A DNA stretch of 6,264 nucleotides from a virus. The stretch covers positions 1-6,264 of IMG/VR virus record IMGVR_UViG_3300020030_000101. The stretch is one strand, 5' to 3'. The notes beneath the pieces were generated by a model. The model did no database searches, was not told the DNA's origin, and saw only the letters and a program-made list of their open reading frames with translations. The translations under genes were made by a program, and so were the position numbers. Positions 1-6,264 of the stretch are shown in pieces; the stretch's first letter is position 1, and every line of letters starts with the position of its first letter.

Positions 1-121
1 GTTGAACGCACTTTTAAGGACCCCGAAGTTCGGTTTTCTTATCCTATGAAACCTAGTGAGCTTTTGTCTATTCTTGGAAAGATTAAGCATAATGTTCCCA
101 ATAGGATTCCTTATGTTTGTA
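1..121. repeat. Terminal redundancy (left copy), the overlap produced when a circular genome is written linearly
   Basis: By eye, gttgaacgcacttttaaggaccccgaag...ccttatgtttgta at 1..121 is identical to 6144..6264. The repeat lies inside an open reading frame that runs continuously across the junction. Confidence 0.9.
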
Positions 122-1338
122 ATCGTGACCTCGATTTGTTTTTAAAACGTTTAAGAAGTTACTACCCGGATGAAAAATTACGTTACTACGCTGTATCAGA
201 ATATGGCCCTACCAGCTTCCGCCCGCATTGGCATTTGTTATTGTTTTCCAATTCCGAACGATTCTCGCAAACTGTTCTTGAAAATGTATCTAAAGCTTGG
301 TCTTACGGACGTTGTGATGCATCACTCTCGAGAGGATTCGCAGCACCGTATGTTGCGTCGTATGTTAACAGTTTTGTCGCTTTACCCGACTTTTATACTC
401 AAATGCCAAAAGTGGTGCGACCTAAATCCTTCCATTCCATTGGATTTACAGAATCAAATCTCTTTCCTCGAAAGGTACGAATTGCCGAAATTGACGCAGT
501 TACCAATAAGTGCCTTAATGGAGTCCGCGTTGAGCGCGATGGTTATTTTCGCACAATTAAACCTACATGGCCGTATCTCCTTCGACTATTCCCCCGATTT
601 TCGAACGCTATTCGTCAATCTCCATCGAGTATTTACCAATTATTATATTCTGCGTTCACTGCGCCCGGGCGAGTCATTCGTAGCGGATGTGCAGATATAA
701 CTTGTGACCCTTTTAACGAGAATGCTCCATCTAAACAGAGTATTTTGTCTTTTTGTAAATATTATTTAAATTATGTGGATAATTATGGAAAATCAAATGA
801 ACTTAATAACTTCCTCTCTCCTCAGGCGAATCTACCGCATAGTGATATTCTCATTCTTACTGAATGTCGTTTGTACGATGGTGTTGATTTGGAAGCTACT
901 CATCGTCTCTCCCGCGTATACCGCTTTTTCCTCGGAATTGCGAAATTTATTCGAACATATTCAACAGACGGATGCTCGGAACTTTTCTGGTCCAGCGGCA
1001 CTCCTGGAGGAGAACTCTTTGGACGAGAAAGGTTCTTGCGCATTATTTCCGAGAAAATAGTTAATTTTTGGAATCGTTACGAGTACAGCCGTCTTGTGGA
1101 TTTCTATCAGACTTTGGAAGACTCCAATGATAAGGATTTGGTAGACTTTGAGCTTCGTAACTATTCTTTCCGTTATAATAGACCTCCTGAGAATAAGGAA
1201 AAACCTTATCATGAGCTCCCTCTTGTTCGTCGTTTGGCTGCCGCGGCTTTGATGAAATGTCGGGATAAGGTTAAACACAAGAGGCTTAACGATTTGTCAG
1301 GTGTTTTTTCTTATCAGGATGAGCCTGAAATTGTTTAA
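1..1338 (+). CDS. VP4: Replication initiation protein VP4, C-terminal part (continuation of 5763..6143). The joined product is about 572 aa.
   Basis: The frame is open from base 1 (VERTFKDPEVRFSYP precedes the Met at 46 used by the ORF track). HUH-type motif 2, RPHWHLLLF, has HWH at 226..234. Motif 3, APYVASYVNS, has two Tyr residues three residues apart (349..351 and 361..363), like the catalytic Tyr pair of phiX174 gpA. Stop TAA at 1336..1338. Confidence 0.9.
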   Translation, partial: VERTFKDPEVRFSYPMKPSELLSILGKIKHNVPNRIPYVCNRDLDLFLKRLRSYYPDEKLRYYAVSEYGPTSFRPHWHLLLFSNSERFSQTVLENVSKAWSYGRCDASLSRGFAAPYVASYVNSFVALPDFYTQMPKVVRPKSFHSIGFTESNLFPRKVRIAEIDAVTNKCLNGVRVERDGYFRTIKPTWPYLLRLFPRFSNAIRQSPSSIYQLLYSAFTAPGRVIRSGCADITCDPFNENAPSKQSILSFCKYYLNYVDNYGKSNELNNFLSPQANLPHSDILILTECRLYDGVDLEATHRLSRVYRFFLGIAKFIRTYSTDGCSELFWSSGTPGGELFGRERFLRIISEKIVNFWNRYEYSRLVDFYQTLEDSNDKDLVDFELRNYSFRYNRPPENKEKPYHELPLVRRLAAAALMKCRDKVKHKRLNDLSGVFSYQDEPEIV

Positions 1339-1357
1339 TTGTTAAATTGTTTTTTTT

Positions 1358-3211
1358 ATGGCTTCTTACACAGGAATGTCCAACCTCCAGAATCACCCTC
1401 ACCGTTCTGGATTTGATATTGGACGTAAAAATGCATTTACTGCGAAAGTTGGTGAGCTTCTTCCCGTTTATTGGGATATTTCCATGCCCGGTGATAAGTA
1501 CAAGTTCAACATTGAGTATTTCACCCGTACCCAGCCCGTTGAAACTTCTGCTTATACCCGTTTGCGTGAATATTTTGATTTTTATGCTGTGCCGTTGCGC
1601 CTTCTTTGGAAGTCTGCGCCTTCTGTGTTGACTCAAATGCAGGATATCAATCAGATTCAGGCTTTGTCTTTGACTCAGAATTTGTCGCTTGGTACTTATC
1701 TCCCTTCTATCTCTCTTTCTCAGCTTGGTGTTGTTCTTTCCCGACTTAATGGAGGGAATTATAGCCCTGGAAGCTCTTCGTCTTTGGTAAATATGTTTGG
1801 TTTTTCTCGTGGAGATTTGTCTTTTAAGTTGTTGAGTTATCTTGGTTATGGTAATGTTGTTAATACTCTACCTTCTCCTGGCAATCGTTGGTGGTCTACT
1901 TCTTTAACGAGGAATGTTGATTCAAAGAGTTATACTCAGCAATATATACAAAATGTCTATGTAAATGTTTTCCCTCTTCTTGCTTATCAGAAGATTTATC
2001 AGGATTTTTTCCGTTGGTCTCAGTGGGAAAATGCTAATCCTTCTTCTTATAATGTAGACTATTTTACGGGTATTTCTCCTACTTTAATTTCTTCTTCGAA
2101 TATTCCTGCTGTGGATTCTGCCTATTGGAAATCTAATACAATATTTGACCTCAAATATTGCAACTGGAACAAGGATATGCTGATGGGTGTTCTTCCGAAT
2201 TCTCAGTTTGGAGATGTTGCTGTAATTGACCTTCCCTCTTCAGTTTCTAATGTTCAGGTTGCTGATACTTCTGGAACTCTTCATCCCGTTGGTACTGCGA
2301 CTGTTATGAGTAAAGGGATTGCTACTTCTCCTATTGGTGTTAATTTGTCTTCTGGAGGAACTATAAATGCTGGTTCTCTTCTTTCTGTCAATGTGCAGGA
2401 TATTGCTTCTAAATTTACGGTTCTCGCTCTTCGCCAAGCCGAAGCTCTTCAACGTTGGAAAGAAGTCAGTCAATCTGGAGATAGTGATTATCGTGAACAG
2501 ATTCGTAAACATTTTGGTGTGAACTTGCCTCAAGCTCTTTCTAATATGTGTACCTATATTGGTGGTATCTCTCGCAACCTTGATATCAGTGAGGTTGTCA
2601 ATAATAACCTTGCTGCCGAAGGTAATACTGCTGTTATTGCTGGTAAAGGAGTTGGTGCTGGTGACGGTTCATTTACTTATACTACCAATGAACATTGTGT
2701 TGTTATGTGTATTTATCATGCTGTTCCCTTGCTTGATTATACAATTACTGGTCAAGACGGACAGTTGCTTGTCACTGATGCTGAAAGCCTTCCGATTCCT
2801 GAGTTTGATAATATTGGCATGGAGGTTCTTCCTATGACGCAAATTTTCAACTCCCCTCAAGCTTCTATTGTTAATCTATTTAATGCAGGTTATAATCCTC
2901 GTTATTTTAATTGGAAAACTAAACTTGATGTTGTTAATGGCGCGTTTACCACTACTCTCAAGTCTTGGGTTTCTCCTGTTACCGAATCTCTTCTTTCTGG
3001 TTGGTTTGGCTCTGGTTATGATGAAGGCGATGTTAACGAGAGTACTCGCGTTGTCTTGAATTATAAGTTCTTCAAGGTTAATCCTTCTGTTCTTGACCCC
3101 ATTTTTGGTGTCAATGCTGATTCTACCTGGGACACTGACCAGCTTTTGGTCAATTCCTATATCGGCTGCTATGTTGCCCGTAATTTGTCTCGTGATGGTG
3201 TACCTTACTAA
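1358..3211 (+). CDS. VP1: Major capsid protein VP1 (Microviridae F-protein family), 617 aa
   Basis: The N-terminus MASYTGMSNLQNHPHRSGFDIGRKNAFTAKVGELLPVYWDISMPGDKYKFNIEYFTRTQPVETSAYTRLREYFDFYAVPLRLLW matches my memory of the conserved microvirus capsid N-terminal block. The C-terminal RYFNWK...VNPSVLDPIF block also fits. It is the longest ORF and uses strongly NNT-biased codons. Confidence 0.92.
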   Translation: MASYTGMSNLQNHPHRSGFDIGRKNAFTAKVGELLPVYWDISMPGDKYKFNIEYFTRTQPVETSAYTRLREYFDFYAVPLRLLWKSAPSVLTQMQDINQIQALSLTQNLSLGTYLPSISLSQLGVVLSRLNGGNYSPGSSSSLVNMFGFSRGDLSFKLLSYLGYGNVVNTLPSPGNRWWSTSLTRNVDSKSYTQQYIQNVYVNVFPLLAYQKIYQDFFRWSQWENANPSSYNVDYFTGISPTLISSSNIPAVDSAYWKSNTIFDLKYCNWNKDMLMGVLPNSQFGDVAVIDLPSSVSNVQVADTSGTLHPVGTATVMSKGIATSPIGVNLSSGGTINAGSLLSVNVQDIASKFTVLALRQAEALQRWKEVSQSGDSDYREQIRKHFGVNLPQALSNMCTYIGGISRNLDISEVVNNNLAAEGNTAVIAGKGVGAGDGSFTYTTNEHCVVMCIYHAVPLLDYTITGQDGQLLVTDAESLPIPEFDNIGMEVLPMTQIFNSPQASIVNLFNAGYNPRYFNWKTKLDVVNGAFTTTLKSWVSPVTESLLSGWFGSGYDEGDVNESTRVVLNYKFFKVNPSVLDPIFGVNADSTWDTDQLLVNSYIGCYVARNLSRDGVPY

Positions 3212-3226
3212 TTTTTTGTTTTGATT

Positions 3227-3709
3227 ATGATAGGAAAATTTAATTGTTTGAACAGTCTGGAACAAGGTTCCGGTCTTGTTCCCGATGTTTCTCCGGATGC
3301 TTTTGCAGTTGCTCCCGAATTTGATTCTACCGAACAGCTTCGCGTTGAAATTTATGATAATGAAGAGGATTGTCCGGTGCGTTACACTTCTGATATTTGT
3401 TTAATTCTTCATACCAAGGACTTGGCTTCTCGTGCCGGTCTTGCTGTTGCCTCCAAGTTCGGACAGAGCAAGCAATCTGCCTCTCAAATTCAGCAGATTA
3501 TGGACAAGATGTCTGATGATGACCTTTTGTCAACGGTTCGTTCCCGGCATGTTCAGGCTCCTTCTGAAATTATTGCTTGGTCTAAAGAGTTGTCGGCTTA
3601 TGCTGAAAACCTTGAATCTCAAGCACAAGAATTGATTGAAACTGAAACTGCTAGACAAGAAGCAGAAAAGGCGTCTGCTGCTCCCGCCGGTTCTGCTTCC
3701 CTTGAATAA
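3227..3709 (+). CDS. Acidic 160-aa protein, putative internal scaffolding protein (VP3-like)
   Basis: ORF 3221..3709 in the track starts at TTG; the first ATG is at 3227. It sits between VP1 and VP2, and its stop overlaps the VP2 start (TAATG at 3707..3711). The protein is rich in Asp/Glu with a predicted helical C-terminus (SEIIAWSKELSAYAENLESQAQELIETETARQEAEKA). The functional call rests only on position and composition. Confidence 0.6.
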   Translation: MIGKFNCLNSLEQGSGLVPDVSPDAFAVAPEFDSTEQLRVEIYDNEEDCPVRYTSDICLILHTKDLASRAGLAVASKFGQSKQSASQIQQIMDKMSDDDLLSTVRSRHVQAPSEIIAWSKELSAYAENLESQAQELIETETARQEAEKASAAPAGSASLE

Positions 3710-4770
3710 TGGGTCTTTTTGGTTCAATCACTGGTGGTCTTCTTGGCATTGGTTCTTCTGCTATTCAGAATTCTCAGAATAGACAAAATGTCCGGGAGAC
3801 TAACCAGATGAACTATAAAATAAATCAGATGAACAATCAGTTTAACGAGCGTATGGCTATGCAGCAGCGTGATTTTCAGGAAAATATGTGGAATAAGGAA
3901 AACGCATATAATACTGCTTCCGCGCAACGTCAACGTCTTGAAGAAGCTGGTTTAAACCCTTATCTGATGATGAATGGTGGTTCTGCTGGTGTCGCTCAGT
4001 CAGCTGGTCCCGGCGCTTCTGCTTCTTCTTCTGGTTCTGCCATCATGCAACCTTTCCAGGCTGATTATTCTGGTGTCCAGCAGGCTATTGGTTCTGTGTT
4101 TCAGTCCCAGGTTCAGCAAGCCCAGGTTTCACAGTTGCAAGGACAGAAAAACCTTGCGGATGCCCAGGCTATGCAGGCTCTTTCTAATGTTGATTGGTCA
4201 AAAATGACGAAAGAAACTCGTGAGTACTTGAAGGCTACCGGCTTGGCACGCGCTCAGCTTGGTTATTCCAAGGAAATGCAGGAACTTGATAATATGGCTT
4301 TTGCCGGACGTCTTCTCCAGGCACAAGGTACCTCCCAGTTGCTTGATGCTGAAGCCAAGACCGTTCTTAACAAGTATCTTGACCAACAGCAGCAGGCTGA
4401 TTTGAATGTCAAGGCTTCTGAATATTATAATCAGATGTCTCATGGTCATTTGAACTATAACCAGGCCAAGAAGGTTCTTGCTGACGAGGTATTGACTTAT
4501 GCCCGTGCCAAAGGTCAGAAAATCAGTAATAAGGTTGCTGAAGCTACTGCCGATTCTTTGATTCGTGCTTCTAATGCTTCAAATCACTCTAATGCTGAAT
4601 TTGAGCTCGAAGCAGCTAAATTCAATCGTGAGCGCGCCCGTTCTCGTAGTATTGAGGACTGGTATCGTTCCCGTAATGAAGGCAAGAAATATAAGTATTA
4701 TGACGCTGATAAGGCTGTTCATTATGGTACTTCTATTGGTAATACTATAGGAAACTTTCTGCCCTGGTAG
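3709..4770 (+). CDS. VP2: Minor capsid / DNA pilot protein VP2, 353 aa
   Basis: Gly-rich hydrophobic N-terminus (MGLFGSITGGLLGIGSSAIQ). The block NTASAQRQRLEEAGLNPYLMM resembles the conserved (A/K)AGLNP motif I recall from microvirus VP2 proteins. A long Gln/Ala-rich, probably coiled-coil middle region is followed by a basic C-terminus. The position after VP1 and the scaffold-like gene fits. Confidence 0.8.
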   Translation: MGLFGSITGGLLGIGSSAIQNSQNRQNVRETNQMNYKINQMNNQFNERMAMQQRDFQENMWNKENAYNTASAQRQRLEEAGLNPYLMMNGGSAGVAQSAGPGASASSSGSAIMQPFQADYSGVQQAIGSVFQSQVQQAQVSQLQGQKNLADAQAMQALSNVDWSKMTKETREYLKATGLARAQLGYSKEMQELDNMAFAGRLLQAQGTSQLLDAEAKTVLNKYLDQQQQADLNVKASEYYNQMSHGHLNYNQAKKVLADEVLTYARAKGQKISNKVAEATADSLIRASNASNHSNAEFELEAAKFNRERARSRSIEDWYRSRNEGKKYKYYDADKAVHYGTSIGNTIGNFLPW

Positions 4771-4792
4771 TACTTTTGTTTGTTGTGTGTTT

Positions 4793-4827
4793 ACCCGGCT
4801 CGTAGTGATACGCGTCGGGTTTTGTTG
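4793..4827 (+). terminator. Intrinsic-terminator-like hairpin with a T-tract just downstream of VP2
   Basis: ACCCGGC-t-CGTA [GTGA] TACG-c-GTCGGGT gives 7 bp (one G-T wobble), one mismatch, then 4 bp, capped by a GNRA-type tetraloop. It is followed directly by TTTTGTTG and begins 23 nt after the VP2 stop. Confidence 0.5.
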
Positions 4828-4878
4828 CTTGGAGTAACTCCCGGCAACCGCGCGTAGCGTGGTTATACAAGTCCTAGA

Positions 4879-4902
4879 TTTTGGCGGTTTTGTCCGCTAA
4901 AA
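4879..4902. repeat. Inverted repeat / hairpin, 9-bp stem (one G-T wobble), 6-nt loop
   Basis: TTTTGGCGG (4879..4887) pairs with CCGCTAAAA (4894..4902). The loop is TTTTGT. Confidence 0.7.
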
Positions 4903-4918
4903 TCGTGAGTCGAAGACT

Positions 4919-4978
4919 CTAAATATAAGAACACACATGAAGGGAGCATAGCGACCGTTGCTAAACACCTAAATATAA
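4919..4978. repeat. 10-nt exact direct repeat CTAAATATAA, two copies starting 50 nt apart
   Basis: Copies lie at 4919..4928 and 4969..4978, flanking a short segment that also repeats AACAC-type strings. Confidence 0.6.
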
Positions 4979-5010
4979 ATTGGCGAAGCCTACATGAGTT
5001 TGCCCGTAGG

Positions 5011-5035
5011 GAAAGCGATTTACCCCATCGCTTTC
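5011..5035. repeat. Perfect 9-bp inverted repeat forming a hairpin with a 7-nt loop
   Basis: GAAAGCGAT (5011..5019) and ATCGCTTTC (5027..5035) are exact reverse complements. The loop is TTACCCC. Confidence 0.8.
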
Positions 5036-5126
5036 AACCTTCTCTTGTCTTATATACGCAAACTCACAGACCAGCCTTCCACCCGCATAGCTTATTGTTT
5101 ATTAATGTTAATAATATATGCTCATA

Positions 5127-5159
5127 TTTGTTTTTTTCAAATTTTTATTTGTACCTTTG
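5127..5159 (+). promoter_or_regulatory. Bacteroidetes-type promoter: -33 TTTG, 21-nt spacer, -7 TAccTTTG
   Basis: TTTG lies at 5127..5130 and TACCTTTG at 5152..5159. This matches the Bacteroides primary-sigma consensus as I recall it (TTTG, 19-21 nt, TAnnTTTG). It sits in an AT-rich tract about 45 nt upstream of the first ATG of the small-gene/VP4 block. Confidence 0.55.
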
Positions 5160-5201
5160 CTTTGTCTTTAAAACCAATGTATAATTAAAATTTTAAATGT
5201 T

Positions 5202-5375
5202 ATGGAAAAGTATTATCTGTGCTCTGTTCAATCGAAGGTTGACCCTAATCAGAATGAGACTATTCTTGTTCTCGTTGACGAAGTTTCTGAATTTGTTTCT
5301 TCGCATCTTCGCCCTGATTGTGTTCTTATTATTTCTCATTGTTCAACTTTTAAAGCAATTTCTGATGAAAAGTGA
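5202..5375 (+). CDS. Hypothetical 57-aa protein (below the ORF-track length cutoff)
   Basis: My translation is MEKYYLCSVQSKVDPNQNETILVLVDEVSEFVSSHLRPDCVLIISHCSTFKAISDEK, ending at TGA 5373..5375. By my count about 35 of 57 codons end in T, the same bias as VP1 and VP2. ATG 5202 is the first ATG after an in-frame TAA at 5169 and lies just downstream of the predicted promoter. The amino-acid composition is balanced, unlike the overlapping 85-aa frame. Confidence 0.55.
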   Translation: MEKYYLCSVQSKVDPNQNETILVLVDEVSEFVSSHLRPDCVLIISHCSTFKAISDEK

Positions 5376-5454
5376 AACTAAATCTAAAATCTGGGCTGCT
5401 GTTATTGCAGCTGCTGTCAGCCTTCTTACGTCTATTGCCAAAATTTTTTCGTAG
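5365..5454 (+). CDS. Putative 29-aa single-pass membrane peptide (candidate holin-like lysis accessory)
   Basis: MKSETKSKIWAAVIAAAVSLLTSIAKIFS has a charged N-terminus followed by about 17 hydrophobic residues. About half of its codons end in T. Its ATG overlaps the last codons of the 57-aa ORF, and its stop TAG (5452..5454) lies 3 nt before the peptidase ATG. It is the only part of track ORF 5197..5454 that is not a shadow of the 57-aa frame. Confidence 0.4.
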   Translation: MKSETKSKIWAAVIAAAVSLLTSIAKIFS

Positions 5455-5457
5455 ATT

Positions 5458-5766
5458 ATGAATCCTGAATTAATGAAATTTGTTGAGTGGCTTCTTCGCC
5501 AAAACATTCATTTTACTGTTACTTCTGCTCTTCGTACTGTAGCGCAGAATAGTGCGTGTAATGGTTCTCCTAATTCTCAGCATTTGACCGGAGATGCCAT
5601 TGACCTGGCACCTGTCGATTTTCCGATTGGTGTTTTCTACTCGATGGTTGAAGATTCTCCCTTTGGATTTGACCAGCTTATAAGATATCGTACATTTATT
5701 CACGTTTCCTTTGCTCGTGGTCGTAAGCCTCGTCAAATGAAACTTGATTTTACTGATAGAAAATGA
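5458..5766 (+). CDS. Zinc D,D- or L,D-peptidase of the M15 family (VanY / Peptidase_M15_3-like), putative endolysin, 102 aa
   Basis: TSALRTVAQNSACNGSPNSQHLTGDAIDL contains the S-x-H-x-x-G-x-A-x-D signature, with His at 5581..5583 and Asp at 5602..5604. A distal YRTFIHVSF supplies the third ligand, His at 5701..5703. No N-terminal signal peptide is apparent. The stop TGA overlaps the VP4 ATG (ATGA at 5763..5766). Confidence 0.75.
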   Translation: MNPELMKFVEWLLRQNIHFTVTSALRTVAQNSACNGSPNSQHLTGDAIDLAPVDFPIGVFYSMVEDSPFGFDQLIRYRTFIHVSFARGRKPRQMKLDFTDRK

Positions 5767-6264
5767 TTACCAAGGAATTGCAGAATAAGTTAGTGACTCG
5801 TTGTCAGCATCCTCGTACGGTTGTTAACAAGTATACACATGAGCCTGTTCTCGTGTCTTGTGGTTCTTGCCCTTCTTGTATTCTCCGTCGTTCCGGTATT
5901 CAGACTAACCTGCTTACTGCTTATTCTGCTCAGTTTCGCTATGTTTATTTTGTTACTCTTACTTATGCTCCTTGTTTCCTTCCTACTTTGGAGGTTTCGG
6001 TTGTTGAAACTTGTACGGACGATATTGCGGACGTGTCTTGCGTTCCCGATATTAATGACCTGGACGCTAGTGACCCTAACACTTATTTGTTTGGTTTTCG
6101 TAGCGTTCCTCGTTCTGCCTCTGTTAAGTTGAAAAATTCTACCGTTGAACGCACTTTTAAGGACCCCGAAGTTCGGTTTTCTTATCCTATGAAACCTAGT
6201 GAGCTTTTGTCTATTCTTGGAAAGATTAAGCATAATGTTCCCAATAGGATTCCTTATGTTTGTA
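5763..6264 (+). CDS. VP4: Replication initiation protein VP4 (HUH rolling-circle endonuclease), N-terminal part. It runs off the window end and continues at position 1.
   Basis: This ORF is absent from the ORF track because it has no stop in the window. ATG at 5763 follows an in-frame TAG at 5757. My translation is MITKELQNKLVTRCQHPRTVVNKYTHEPVLVSCGSCPSCILRRSGIQTNLLTAYSAQFRYVYFVTLTYAPCF... It has a Cys/His cluster (C14, H16, C33, C36, C39) and Rep motif 1, FVTLTY, at 5949..5966. The frame stays open through 6143 into 6144, which equals position 1. Confidence 0.85.
   Translation, partial: MITKELQNKLVTRCQHPRTVVNKYTHEPVLVSCGSCPSCILRRSGIQTNLLTAYSAQFRYVYFVTLTYAPCFLPTLEVSVVETCTDDIADVSCVPDINDLDASDPNTYLFGFRSVPRSASVKLKNSTVERTFKDPEVRFSYPMKPSELLSILGKIKHNVPNRIPYVC
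6144..6264. repeat. Terminal redundancy (right copy), duplicate of 1..121
   Basis: Same 121-nt string as 1..121. The offset of 6143 gives the genome length. Confidence 0.9.

Follow-up and report, generated by a model that had tools for sequence, protein, structure and literature searches.

A 29-residue membrane peptide encoded beside a minimal M15 peptidase as a candidate lysis component of an Alpavirinae-like gut microvirus

The IMG/VR virus record IMGVR_UViG_3300020030_000101, analysed from position 1 to 6,264 (this whole stretch of 6,264 nucleotides (nt) is called the window below), is the complete circular genome of an Alpavirinae-like gut microvirus. It contains a conserved, translationally coupled block made up of a promoter, a gene for a 57-residue protein, a gene for a 29-residue membrane peptide, a gene for a 102-residue M15 peptidase, and the replication gene Rep. 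Because the peptide family also occurs in related genomes without any peptidase, the peptide may be the lineage's primary membrane-acting lysis effector, with the peptidase as an acquired endolysin working beside it, a reading to which we give slightly less than an even chance. An earlier note, made from the sequence alone, had taken the two genes for a two-component lysis cassette, and this interpretation is partly supported: the coupling and the holin-like layout hold, but the block contains a third gene, that of the 57-residue protein, and the pair is separable. The M15 peptidase as a putative microvirus endolysin is already known from publications (PMC3394797, PMC9239249, PMC11499846, PMC13064476); what appears to be new here is its mini membrane partner.

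The open reading frame (ORF) of the peptide starts with the ATG at 5365, stops with the TAG at 5452-5454, and ends 3 nt before the ATG of the peptidase gene, so that both ORFs and their spacing are confirmed where the earlier note had placed them (Table 1). The frame is intact at the equivalent place in 78 of 80 IMG/VR loci carrying the 102-residue peptidase, the two exceptions being one ORF cut by a contig end and one (L026/L084) that is disrupted. It is likewise intact, with start and stop as in the window, in four close GenBank relatives, yet is annotated in none of them. Among the 31 sequences of the group closest to the window (clade A), variable columns are distributed over the first, second, and third codon positions as 9/4/20, and the ratio of nonsynonymous to synonymous diversity (pN/pS) is 0.10 in the peptide frame versus 1.5 and 1.2 in the other two frames. 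The corresponding values for a more distant group (clade B) are 9/3/20, and 0.11 versus 1.2 and 8.5. This third-position excess, which the earlier note had named as a check on the ORF, together with pN/pS values above 1 in the alternative frames, identifies a translated peptide, and by these substitution patterns the 29-codon ORF behaves as a real gene under purifying selection. A longer, 85-residue reading of the same frame (5197-5454) was rejected: conservation is confined to the last 29 codons, and stops interrupt the part before the ATG at positions that differ between relatives. The product is thus taken to be the 29-mer.

The clade A peptide (MKSETKSKIWSAIIAAAVSLLTSIAQIFS) is nearly invariant, and it accompanies peptidases 65-90% identical to that of the window. 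In clade B, whose peptidases are ~50% identical to the window's, the peptide has 27 residues (MKSNNIWKIVIGAVSAALGYILNAIGL) and its stop codon overlaps the peptidase ATG (ATGA), while Microvirus mar62 encodes an intermediate form. As had been expected from a charged head and a single hydrophobic helix, hydropathy divides the window peptide into a basic N-terminal head (MKSETKSK) and a ~20-residue hydrophobic helix, I9-F28, with a Kyte-Doolittle mean of ~2.1-2.2 over the best 17 residues; the N-terminal flank has a net charge of +2, which predicts an N-in/C-out orientation. One face of the helix bears a stripe of small or polar residues in both clades (A/G, S/A, T/G, and Q/N at positions 15, 19, 22, and 26), and this stripe is kept between peptides that are otherwise only ~35% identical. 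Proline appears in the peptide variants as a single C-terminal residue, in locus L094. In the nr database the consensus peptide retrieves solely entries named 'hypothetical protein [Microviridae sp.]' (e.g. DAE51345.1). A tblastn search of the peptide against GenBank phages gave no match, probably owing to the low-complexity filter, and homologues were found by local regular-expression and hidden Markov model (HMM) scans. One may speculate that the peptide derives from the ~27 N-terminal codons that the peptidase lacks relative to full-length forms, whose position and size, as in the microvirus phiHBP1, it matches; a sequence trace of such an origin was looked for in the peptide and none was found.

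The neighbouring gene, with its ATG at 5458 and TGA at 5764-5766, encodes the motifs SQHLTGDAID (with H42 and D49) and FIHVS (with H82 and S84), in which the earlier note had recognised an M15 zinc-ligand pattern. Profile searches bear this out: the protein matches Pfam PF08291 (Peptidase_M15_3; E=2.6e-11, 44 bits vs a cut-off of 23.2) over profile positions 42-108 of 108, as well as PHROG 894 'endolysin' (E=1.5e-14), and all listed homologues bear PF08291. Sequence matches in the PDB are T5 endolysin (2mxz), ChiX, and the zinc DD-peptidase of Streptomyces albus (1lbu). An AlphaFold2 (AF2) model built on an alignment of 54 homologues is confident (predicted local distance difference test (pLDDT) 95, predicted TM-score 0.85), and Foldseek places 1lbu at the top of its PDB matches (E=3.4e-4, TMq 0.59), followed by LysB4, the Sonic hedgehog N-domain (ShhN), LysECD7, Ply500, LdcB, and VanY, the last of which had been suggested beforehand for superposition; the top PDB fold matches are all LAS/M15 enzymes. 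By this model, the 102-residue protein is an M15A zinc peptidase of the LAS/hedgehog fold. It has in common with 1lbu, T5 endolysin (2mxz), LysB4 (6akv), LysECD7 (8q2g), and Ply500 (2vo9) the fold, the H-x6-D...H zinc site as predicted, and the Arg preceding it. Its TM-scores against solved LAS/M15 structures are only 0.5-0.6 because it is a minimal core without the N-terminal segment, lacking the first ~27-45 residues of full-length M15_3 domains. Residues R26, S40, H42, and D49, which are invariant in 54 family members, correspond to R138, S152, H154, and D161 in 1lbu and also fit the motif of T5 endolysin; the predicted metal ligands H42, D49, and H82, the substrate Arg R26, and the pair D72-Q73 are among the residues invariant across both clades and phiHBP1. 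The predicted third zinc ligand, H82, is located on a predicted beta-strand (81-84); PDB profile alignments stop before the C-terminal motif, and the ligand and catalytic assignments there follow conservation and the literature.

The peptidase is under purifying selection (pN/pS 0.28), and a signal peptide, transmembrane (TM) segment, or signal-anchor-release (SAR) segment was looked for and is absent, as the earlier note had stated of the signal peptide: no 17-residue stretch exceeds a Kyte-Doolittle mean of 1.29, and helix 3-14 at the N-terminus belongs to the confidently modelled fold. The impression that M15-like ORFs are sporadic in microviruses has to be abandoned, since the family profile retrieves more than 7,500 proteins from the database, nearly all of them 102 residues long and on ~6-kb contigs. 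A putative endolysin role was published in 2012 (PMC3394797). Close GenBank relatives label the gene 'peptidase'. In two records (PP511453 and PP511602; L040 1138-1512 and L042 1138-1512), the 'peptidase' coding sequence is 124 residues long and starts 63 nt too far upstream, which is probably a misannotation that hides the mini-peptide gene. This upstream start is an alternative in-frame ATG that overlaps the conserved peptide ORF; it creates no TM fusion, and it was rejected as the true start. More distant homologues are found in tailed phages, with FDQLI...WVHIG in Burkholderia phage vB_PR2a and YDQLI...WVHIS in Brevundimonas phage Bambus, and in both the peptidase gene lies between an annotated holin and spanins. 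In addition, phiHBP1, the first cultured microvirus of Bacteroides fragilis and a plaque-forming one (PMC13064476), encodes a related M15A peptidase of 135 residues with FDQLI...FIHVSW. By analogy, the tailed-phage homologues in holin-endolysin-spanin cassettes and plaque-forming phiHBP1 argue in favour of an endolysin role.

Both genes are embedded in a tightly packed block. The stop of the 57-residue ORF overlaps the peptide start by 11 nt, and the peptidase stop overlaps the Rep start (ATGA); with the 3-nt gap between peptide and peptidase, this arrangement makes it probable that all three proteins are synthesised along with Rep. The distance from the peptide stop to the peptidase ATG varies among relatives (2, 3, 9, 12, 13, 16, 21, 29, 32, or 56 nt), and clade B has a 4-nt overlap throughout. 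Upstream, a -7 box (TAnnTTTG) lies 50 nt ahead of the 57-residue ORF, a motif which we take to be part of the Bacteroides -7/-33 promoter consensus. The promoter pattern occurs once in the window against 0.42 expected matches, which is weak alone. In 89 of 109 related loci, some of them redundant, TAnnTTTG nevertheless precedes the small-ORF ATG by ~50 nt (clade A) or ~58 nt (clade B), and the conserved box points to a single transcription unit for the block. Co-expression of peptide and peptidase would be expected from the coupling and this conserved box. The first gene of the block encodes an acidic soluble protein, called 'hypothetical protein' in GenBank relatives, with 416 database homologues, none of which has a Pfam domain. 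Its AF2 model (pLDDT 86.5) has a beta-beta-alpha-beta fold that gives no significant match in the PDB and retrieves only uncharacterised microviral proteins from BFVD. It is the most constant member of the block, occurring with or without peptide and peptidase, and a probable homologue adjoins the peptidase in phiHBP1. A role as lysis regulator or chaperone is speculation. A search of the window against Rfam returned no RNA family.

Members of the peptide family are also found where no M15 gene exists (OQ686870, PQ006546, PP511329, and the IMG/VR loci L206-L209). In Dipodfec virus UOA04_Rod_499 and bajarodmic virus 429, whose VP1 proteins are relatives of the window's at ~52% identity, the small protein is followed by a mini peptide (MNKVWKEIIRAFVTAAISVLTTLGIM) and Rep, with no M15 gene anywhere, and L206-L209 have the same order with MKPTAKKNLIKWLTYILTAILGALGGNQLPL. 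Dulem virus 262, the only one of these in which the peptide is annotated, has a 30-residue form (MSKKNTWRTILEVIGAVISAVLGALGASSL), no peptidase, and a different gene order. Across the peptidase-less loci, the peptides are 26-31 residues long with a basic head and one TM segment (L147 4480-4560; L148 4587-4667; L047 6291-6383; L206 704-799), and in L147, L148, and L206-L209 no membrane protein other than the peptide is evident in the accessory region beside Rep. The group of Dulem virus 245 (L145 4175-4372; L149 1180-1377) encodes, upstream of the small protein, a 65-residue protein with an N-terminal helix similar to the mini peptides (QWIEIVKLISTFVVGVIT), followed by a lipobox-like VQAC/VQSC cysteine and a Ser/Thr-rich tail; it is possibly an extended, lipoprotein-like member of the peptide family.

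Comparable small ORFs also abut M15 peptidases of unrelated clades. A peptide HMM trained only on clade A, clade B, and mar62 was run against 7,440 ORFs from all loci, and after its own family it ranked other ORFs of 26-32 residues with a basic head and a TM segment highest, at weak E-values (0.03-9). ORFs of this type, 28-30 residues long, lie beside unrelated M15 peptidases in bajarodmic virus 540, MT135448, MG945328, and MG945336. In bajarodmic virus 540 the mini ORF begins 4 nt short of the end of the gene for a 162-residue peptidase, and in the other three a conserved ORF of 29-30 residues (MTKEQLNKISNALCALISAVCAALSYFFS and MLTKEKLTRISNGICALISAICAAISYFLS, with synonymous differences present) overlaps the last ~35 nt of a 131-residue peptidase and fills the gap before Rep. 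The coordinates of these mini ORFs are L045 1404-1490, L044 1412-1501, L143 5404-5493, and L144 5727-5819. MG945328 and MG945336 are the pair that has been cited for lateral exchange of the peptidase region (PMC9239249), and the one nucleotide block that these otherwise unrelated genomes have in common, of 766 nt at 76% identity, comprises the peptidase and the first two-thirds of the mini ORF. The 700-nt peptidase region described as recombinant by Kirchberger et al. was considered as a counterpart of the window's cassette and discarded: it has a peptidase of a different clade and no upstream peptide, and its own mini TM ORF lies downstream.

We infer functional roles for the two proteins from their sequences and models, and the following course of events may be proposed. 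The mini single-helix peptides would be the membrane-acting lysis component of these microviruses, and M15 peptidases would be captured endolysins that settled next to them, so that the peptidase would be a horizontally acquired enhancer inserted beside the peptide and the window would represent the combined state, working like a holin-endolysin pair. The peptide would insert N-in/C-out into the inner membrane, self-associate along its conserved small/polar face (positions 15, 19, 22, and 26), and permeabilise the membrane at a critical level; the folded cytoplasmic peptidase (~11.7 kDa, calculated) would thereby reach the murein and cut its stem peptides or cross-links, leading to cell lysis. 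A broader version of this proposal, which we hold tentatively and somewhat below the reading for the window itself, is that N-in single-helix peptides of 26-31 residues, occasionally in 65-residue forms, are the missing lysis effector of Alpavirinae-like gut microviruses, alone or with M15 enzymes; encoded next to Rep with a small soluble protein, they would form a two-component or, with the 57-residue protein, three-component cassette wherever an M15 endolysin has been captured.

Several observations weigh against this account. Peptide and peptidase are phyletically separable, and a pure hole-former in the peptidase-less genomes would be unable to digest murein, so that a different mechanism fits those genomes better. 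Conversely, the peptidase can apparently do without the peptide: the two genomes mar63 and phiHBP1 (records MZ089809 and PV598014) have a peptidase and no recognisable peptide. In phiHBP1 the small protein and the 135-residue peptidase have no peptide between them, and mar63 (L146 4577-5055) joins the small protein directly to a 101-residue peptidase, with no membrane ORF in its accessory region, whereas its sister mar62 has the mini peptide. The check that the earlier note had proposed, namely whether the peptide frame is interrupted in relatives that retain the peptidase, came out mixed: beside the large majority of intact frames stands one genome, L026 (2883-3013), in which codon 4 has changed from GAA to TAA and 8 nt are duplicated within the ORF, next to an intact peptidase. 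Moreover, the peptides of clades A and B are connected to those of peptidase-less genomes by weak scores (E 0.03-9) together with position and pattern. The peptide has no significant match among Pfam and PHROG families (best phrog_443 'holin', E=0.13), is far smaller than described holins, and has no charged C-terminal tail, as it stops 1-4 residues past the hydrophobic segment (KIFS, or S). That lesions made from 29 residues would be wide enough for a folded ~11.7-kDa enzyme is an assumption, and no spanin-like gene for the outer membrane is evident in the window.

The catalytic site raises a further question. The LAS catalytic residue is usually a His at -2 (HxH) or a Glu/Asp at -3 from the ligand His (PMC4087270), but the window peptidase has F80 at -2 and T79 at -3 from H82, thus lacking both the catalytic His of 1lbu and the -3 Glu/Asp of the LdcB, VanX, and T5 types (PMC4087270), and it has S84 at +2 where many M15A members have Asp. 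This Ser had led the earlier note to doubt the enzyme's competence, and the doubt is answered in part. Since 'HVS' is fixed throughout the subfamily, along with an invariant [FY]DQLI strand, HVS in place of HVD is a subfamily trait and not decay; the doubt persists insofar as the usual catalytic residue is absent and competence is deduced from conservation. YcbK likewise lacks HxH, and neither catalytic type is found there (PMC3927764). The invariant D72-Q73 pair is a candidate stand-in suggested by its conservation. As a universal substitute catalytic acid, however, D72 is weakened by the HIS-type clade of MG945328, which has Thr at this position. All in all, the peptidase is probably catalytically active.

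Other explanations of the peptide deserve consideration. It might be an autonomous single-gene lysis protein whose TM helix binds and blocks a membrane-bound step in the synthesis or flipping of murein precursors, such as MraY or MurJ, in the manner of phiX174 E and of small lysis proteins of single-stranded (ss) RNA phages, with the peptidase as an accessory that acts only after envelope failure, for example by clearing sacculus debris for virion escape; we regard this as rather improbable. Its appeal is that it explains the peptidase-less genomes better than the holin-like account does, since the peptide is conserved there next to Rep, these viruses still must lyse their hosts, and a hole-former cannot remove murein. 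The low pN of the peptide (0.025, versus 0.13 for the peptidase) is also what a helix fitting a conserved host protein would be expected to display, and ssRNA phages are known to have lysis proteins of 35-37 residues with a single TM segment. The peptide, however, has no similarity to phiX174 E, no Pro in its helix, and a slot of its own instead of an overprinted one; a signal-less peptidase kept under purifying selection in thousands of 6-kb genomes would need another reason to exist; a functional partnership is suggested by the recurrence of mini TM ORFs next to unrelated peptidases; and mar63 and phiHBP1 manage without the peptide. A non-lytic membrane role, in which the peptide tethers replication or assembly complexes (through the 57-residue protein or Rep) or blocks superinfection and merely shares an accessory slot with the peptidase, is unlikely too, if slightly less so, and is favoured by the separability of the pair. 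The accessory genes of these genomes all cluster between VP2 and Rep, the most constant neighbours of the peptide are the 57-residue protein and Rep rather than the peptidase, each of the pair is found without the other (as phiHBP1 and mar63 illustrate), and the lipobox-like Cys and Ser/Thr-rich tail give the 65-residue form of the Dulem virus 245 group a closer likeness to envelope proteins than to holins. What such a role leaves unexplained is that lytic microviruses need a lysis function for which the peptidase-less genomes show no other candidate; that lysis genes cluster in phages, and a peptidase was inserted exactly beside the peptide, and coupled to it, in at least three lineages; and that in independent lineages the mini TM ORFs flank unrelated peptidases on the opposite side, an arrangement not expected from slot sharing alone.

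It is very improbable that the 29-codon frame has no separate product, being either the first part of a readthrough or frameshift fusion (a recoded SAR-endolysin) or a DNA or RNA element. The idea is prompted by the window and most clade A genomes, in which peptide and peptidase are in one frame, parted by the stop and one codon, and by a pS of 0.24 for the peptide, about half of the 0.46 of the peptidase, which hints at extra constraint at the nucleotide level. Spacing and frame relation vary among relatives, however, with the 4-nt overlap of clade B as one case, and the stop codon is TAA in 27 of the 31 sequences, so that a fusion to the peptidase was rejected; third-position substitutions, pN/pS above 1 in the alternative frames, and the empty Rfam search speak against a non-coding element.

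Comparison with known systems helps to place the peptide and the peptidase. The tailed-phage M15 cassettes of vB_PR2a (holin, endolysin, and Rz-like spanin) and Bambus resemble the window in having a small membrane gene directly upstream of a signal-less M15 gene, close spacing, a single coding strand, and peptidases (33-38% identical) of the FDQLI...H-x-S/G variant. Their holins, by contrast, are 94-189 residues long with at least two hydrophobic segments and charged tails, whereas the window peptide has 29 residues and one helix; the window also lacks a spanin equivalent, has an enzyme cut to 102 residues and a 6-kb ssDNA genome, and its type of peptide, unlike those holins, also occurs without the enzyme. 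The likeness to holin-endolysin pairs of tailed phages that the earlier note had drawn is thus borne out by the position of the homologous genes between holin and spanin, but it fails on two features of holins. Like canonical holins, the peptide is a small TM protein by hydropathy and its gene adjoins that of the putative endolysin (in the 78 loci above); unlike them, it has no charged C-terminal domain, matches no described holin family significantly, and is not obligatorily partnered with an endolysin.

The lysis protein E of phiX174 is 91 residues long, is overprinted in gene D, needs a conserved Pro in its helix, and works with no muralytic enzyme. It resembles the peptide in being a short protein from a small genome with one essential N-terminal TM helix, but the peptide gene has its own slot (bar the 11-nt overlap) and an adjacent gene for a muralytic-type enzyme, and neither the overprinting nor the helix Pro of E-type proteins is found. 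For relatives that lack a peptidase, E would serve as the model of how the peptide acts. Very small membrane proteins that collapse the membrane potential are known from phage 21, with its pinholin and SAR-endolysin, and from type I toxins such as TisB, which has 29 residues like the peptide and a similar hydropathy. Pinholes release only membrane-tethered periplasmic enzymes, and neither protein has a sequence relationship to the peptide. The window peptidase has no N-terminal signal or SAR segment as SAR and secreted endolysins do, and depolarisation alone would therefore not deliver it. Within microviruses, M15_3 genes of Alpavirinae and Gokushovirinae were proposed to be horizontally acquired endolysins, beside which an ORF called 'unknown' was noted in 5 of 11 cases (Roux et al. 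2012, PMC3394797), and peptidase accessory genes were described by Kirchberger et al. (2022, PMC9239249), who omitted overprinted genes from their analysis. Neither of these papers, nor that on phiHBP1 (PMC13064476), describes a membrane partner. The window peptidase is a member of the M15 set of Roux, Kirchberger, and phiHBP1, alike in family, virus group, and proposed role. As the earlier note had supposed, no description of a membrane partner of a microvirus peptidase was found in the literature, a search that left most subscription journals outside, so that absence is not proof.

The ends of the window are identical (1-121 = 6144-6264), and the window therefore represents a complete circular genome of 6,143 nt with 121 nt of assembly redundancy. 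All of its genes are on the plus strand (Table 1). By Megablast, eight microviruses in GenBank, derived from faeces of lemurs and rodents, are 83-87% identical to the window and share its gene order; among the close relatives are Dulem viruses 236 and 257 and bajarodmic viruses 1134 and 410, and the Rep annotation in close GenBank relatives starts 4 nt ahead of the peptidase stop. The VP1 of the window is 41% identical to that of phiHBP1.

Table 1. Coordinates of the features of the window
Feature	Position	Strand	Basis or remark
Bacteroides-type promoter-like site (TTTG ... TACCTTTG)	5127..5159	+	-7 box TAnnTTTG at 5152-5159
57-residue acidic soluble protein, first gene of the block	5202..5375	+	conserved in all relatives examined
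29-residue single-pass membrane peptide MKSETKSKIWAAVIAAAVSLLTSIAKIFS, candidate lysis effector (holin-like)	5365..5454	+	ORF, conservation, pN/pS, hydropathy
102-residue minimal M15A (LAS-fold) zinc peptidase, putative endolysin	5458..5766	+	PF08291, PHROG 894, AF2 fold
Rep/VP4	5763 across the circular junction to 1338	+	Pfam PF23343 and PHROG 942 on the downstream part; 5' part = 5763..6264
Major capsid protein VP1	1358-3211	+	
Scaffold protein	3221-3709	+	
Pilot protein VP2	3709-4770	+	
Non-coding stretch, 430 nt	after VP2		followed by three small ORFs directly upstream of Rep

The host is probably a member of the Bacteroidota, because the Bacteroides-type -7 box and an 88-kb contig carrying DUF4923 and DUF1573 genes fit such a host. 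At the end of this contig (L131 1-12701, ENA ERZ501913 NODE_27) lies a close relative of the window, directly followed by bacterial genes (RecR, DUF4923, DUF1573, and an OPT transporter); it represents either a viral copy integrated into the genome of a member of the Bacteroidota or a chimeric assembly. No close prophage relative was found in GTDB species representative genomes, and a single-sequence Rep scan of IMG/VR gave no match.

The region between VP2 and the block has features of its own. A hydrophobic ORF of 64 residues (4994-5188) was considered as a holin of normal size and rejected: relatives keep its first 15 codons, but its length ranges from 19 to 126 residues and its frame shifts among them. 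Since the ORF spans a conserved hairpin together with the promoter box, what is conserved here is DNA. The hairpin (5011-5035) is perfect, GAAAGCGAT-TTACCCC-ATCGCTTTC, and lies in a stretch that relatives preserve in sequence without preserving the frame. It probably serves as a signal in DNA or RNA, such as an origin, a terminator, or a packaging site, and not as coding sequence. The intergenic segment 4771-4960, folded as ssDNA, reaches -32.9 kcal/mol (z=-4.06 vs shuffles), and positions 4829-4883 share 91% identity with Dulem virus 262, a genome without nucleotide similarity to the window elsewhere. This segment, 4829-4883 in particular, is a candidate for a conserved origin or other cis element.

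To our knowledge, microvirus lysis outside the phiX174 group is essentially unknown. Alpavirinae-like and gokusho-like phages are nevertheless among the most abundant viruses of the mammalian gut. Publications so far only note that some microviruses carry a possibly lytic peptidase; a signal-less endolysin needs a route through the membrane, and a conserved, coupled membrane peptide of 29 residues is a concrete candidate for it. The peptide is also readily testable, as its gene has 87 nt and a cultured Bacteroides microvirus relative exists. ORFs of ~30 codons are annotated inconsistently, being omitted in the four close GenBank relatives and in six relatives of clade B or mar62 that were examined and entered as 'hypothetical protein' in Dulem virus 262 and some third-party annotation records, and thus current counts of microvirus accessory genes are probably too low. 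If the proposal is true, the peptide family would comprise the smallest holins or lysis proteins known, and the mini peptides beside unrelated M15 peptidases in other microvirus families would be traces of modules of a mini-holin and an endolysin that were assembled more than once, and at times laterally transferred, in ssDNA phages. Should the peptide permeabilise membranes or block wall synthesis, phage lysis proteins would have a new lower size limit, and the peptide would also be a minimal scaffold for antibacterial peptides against Bacteroidota.

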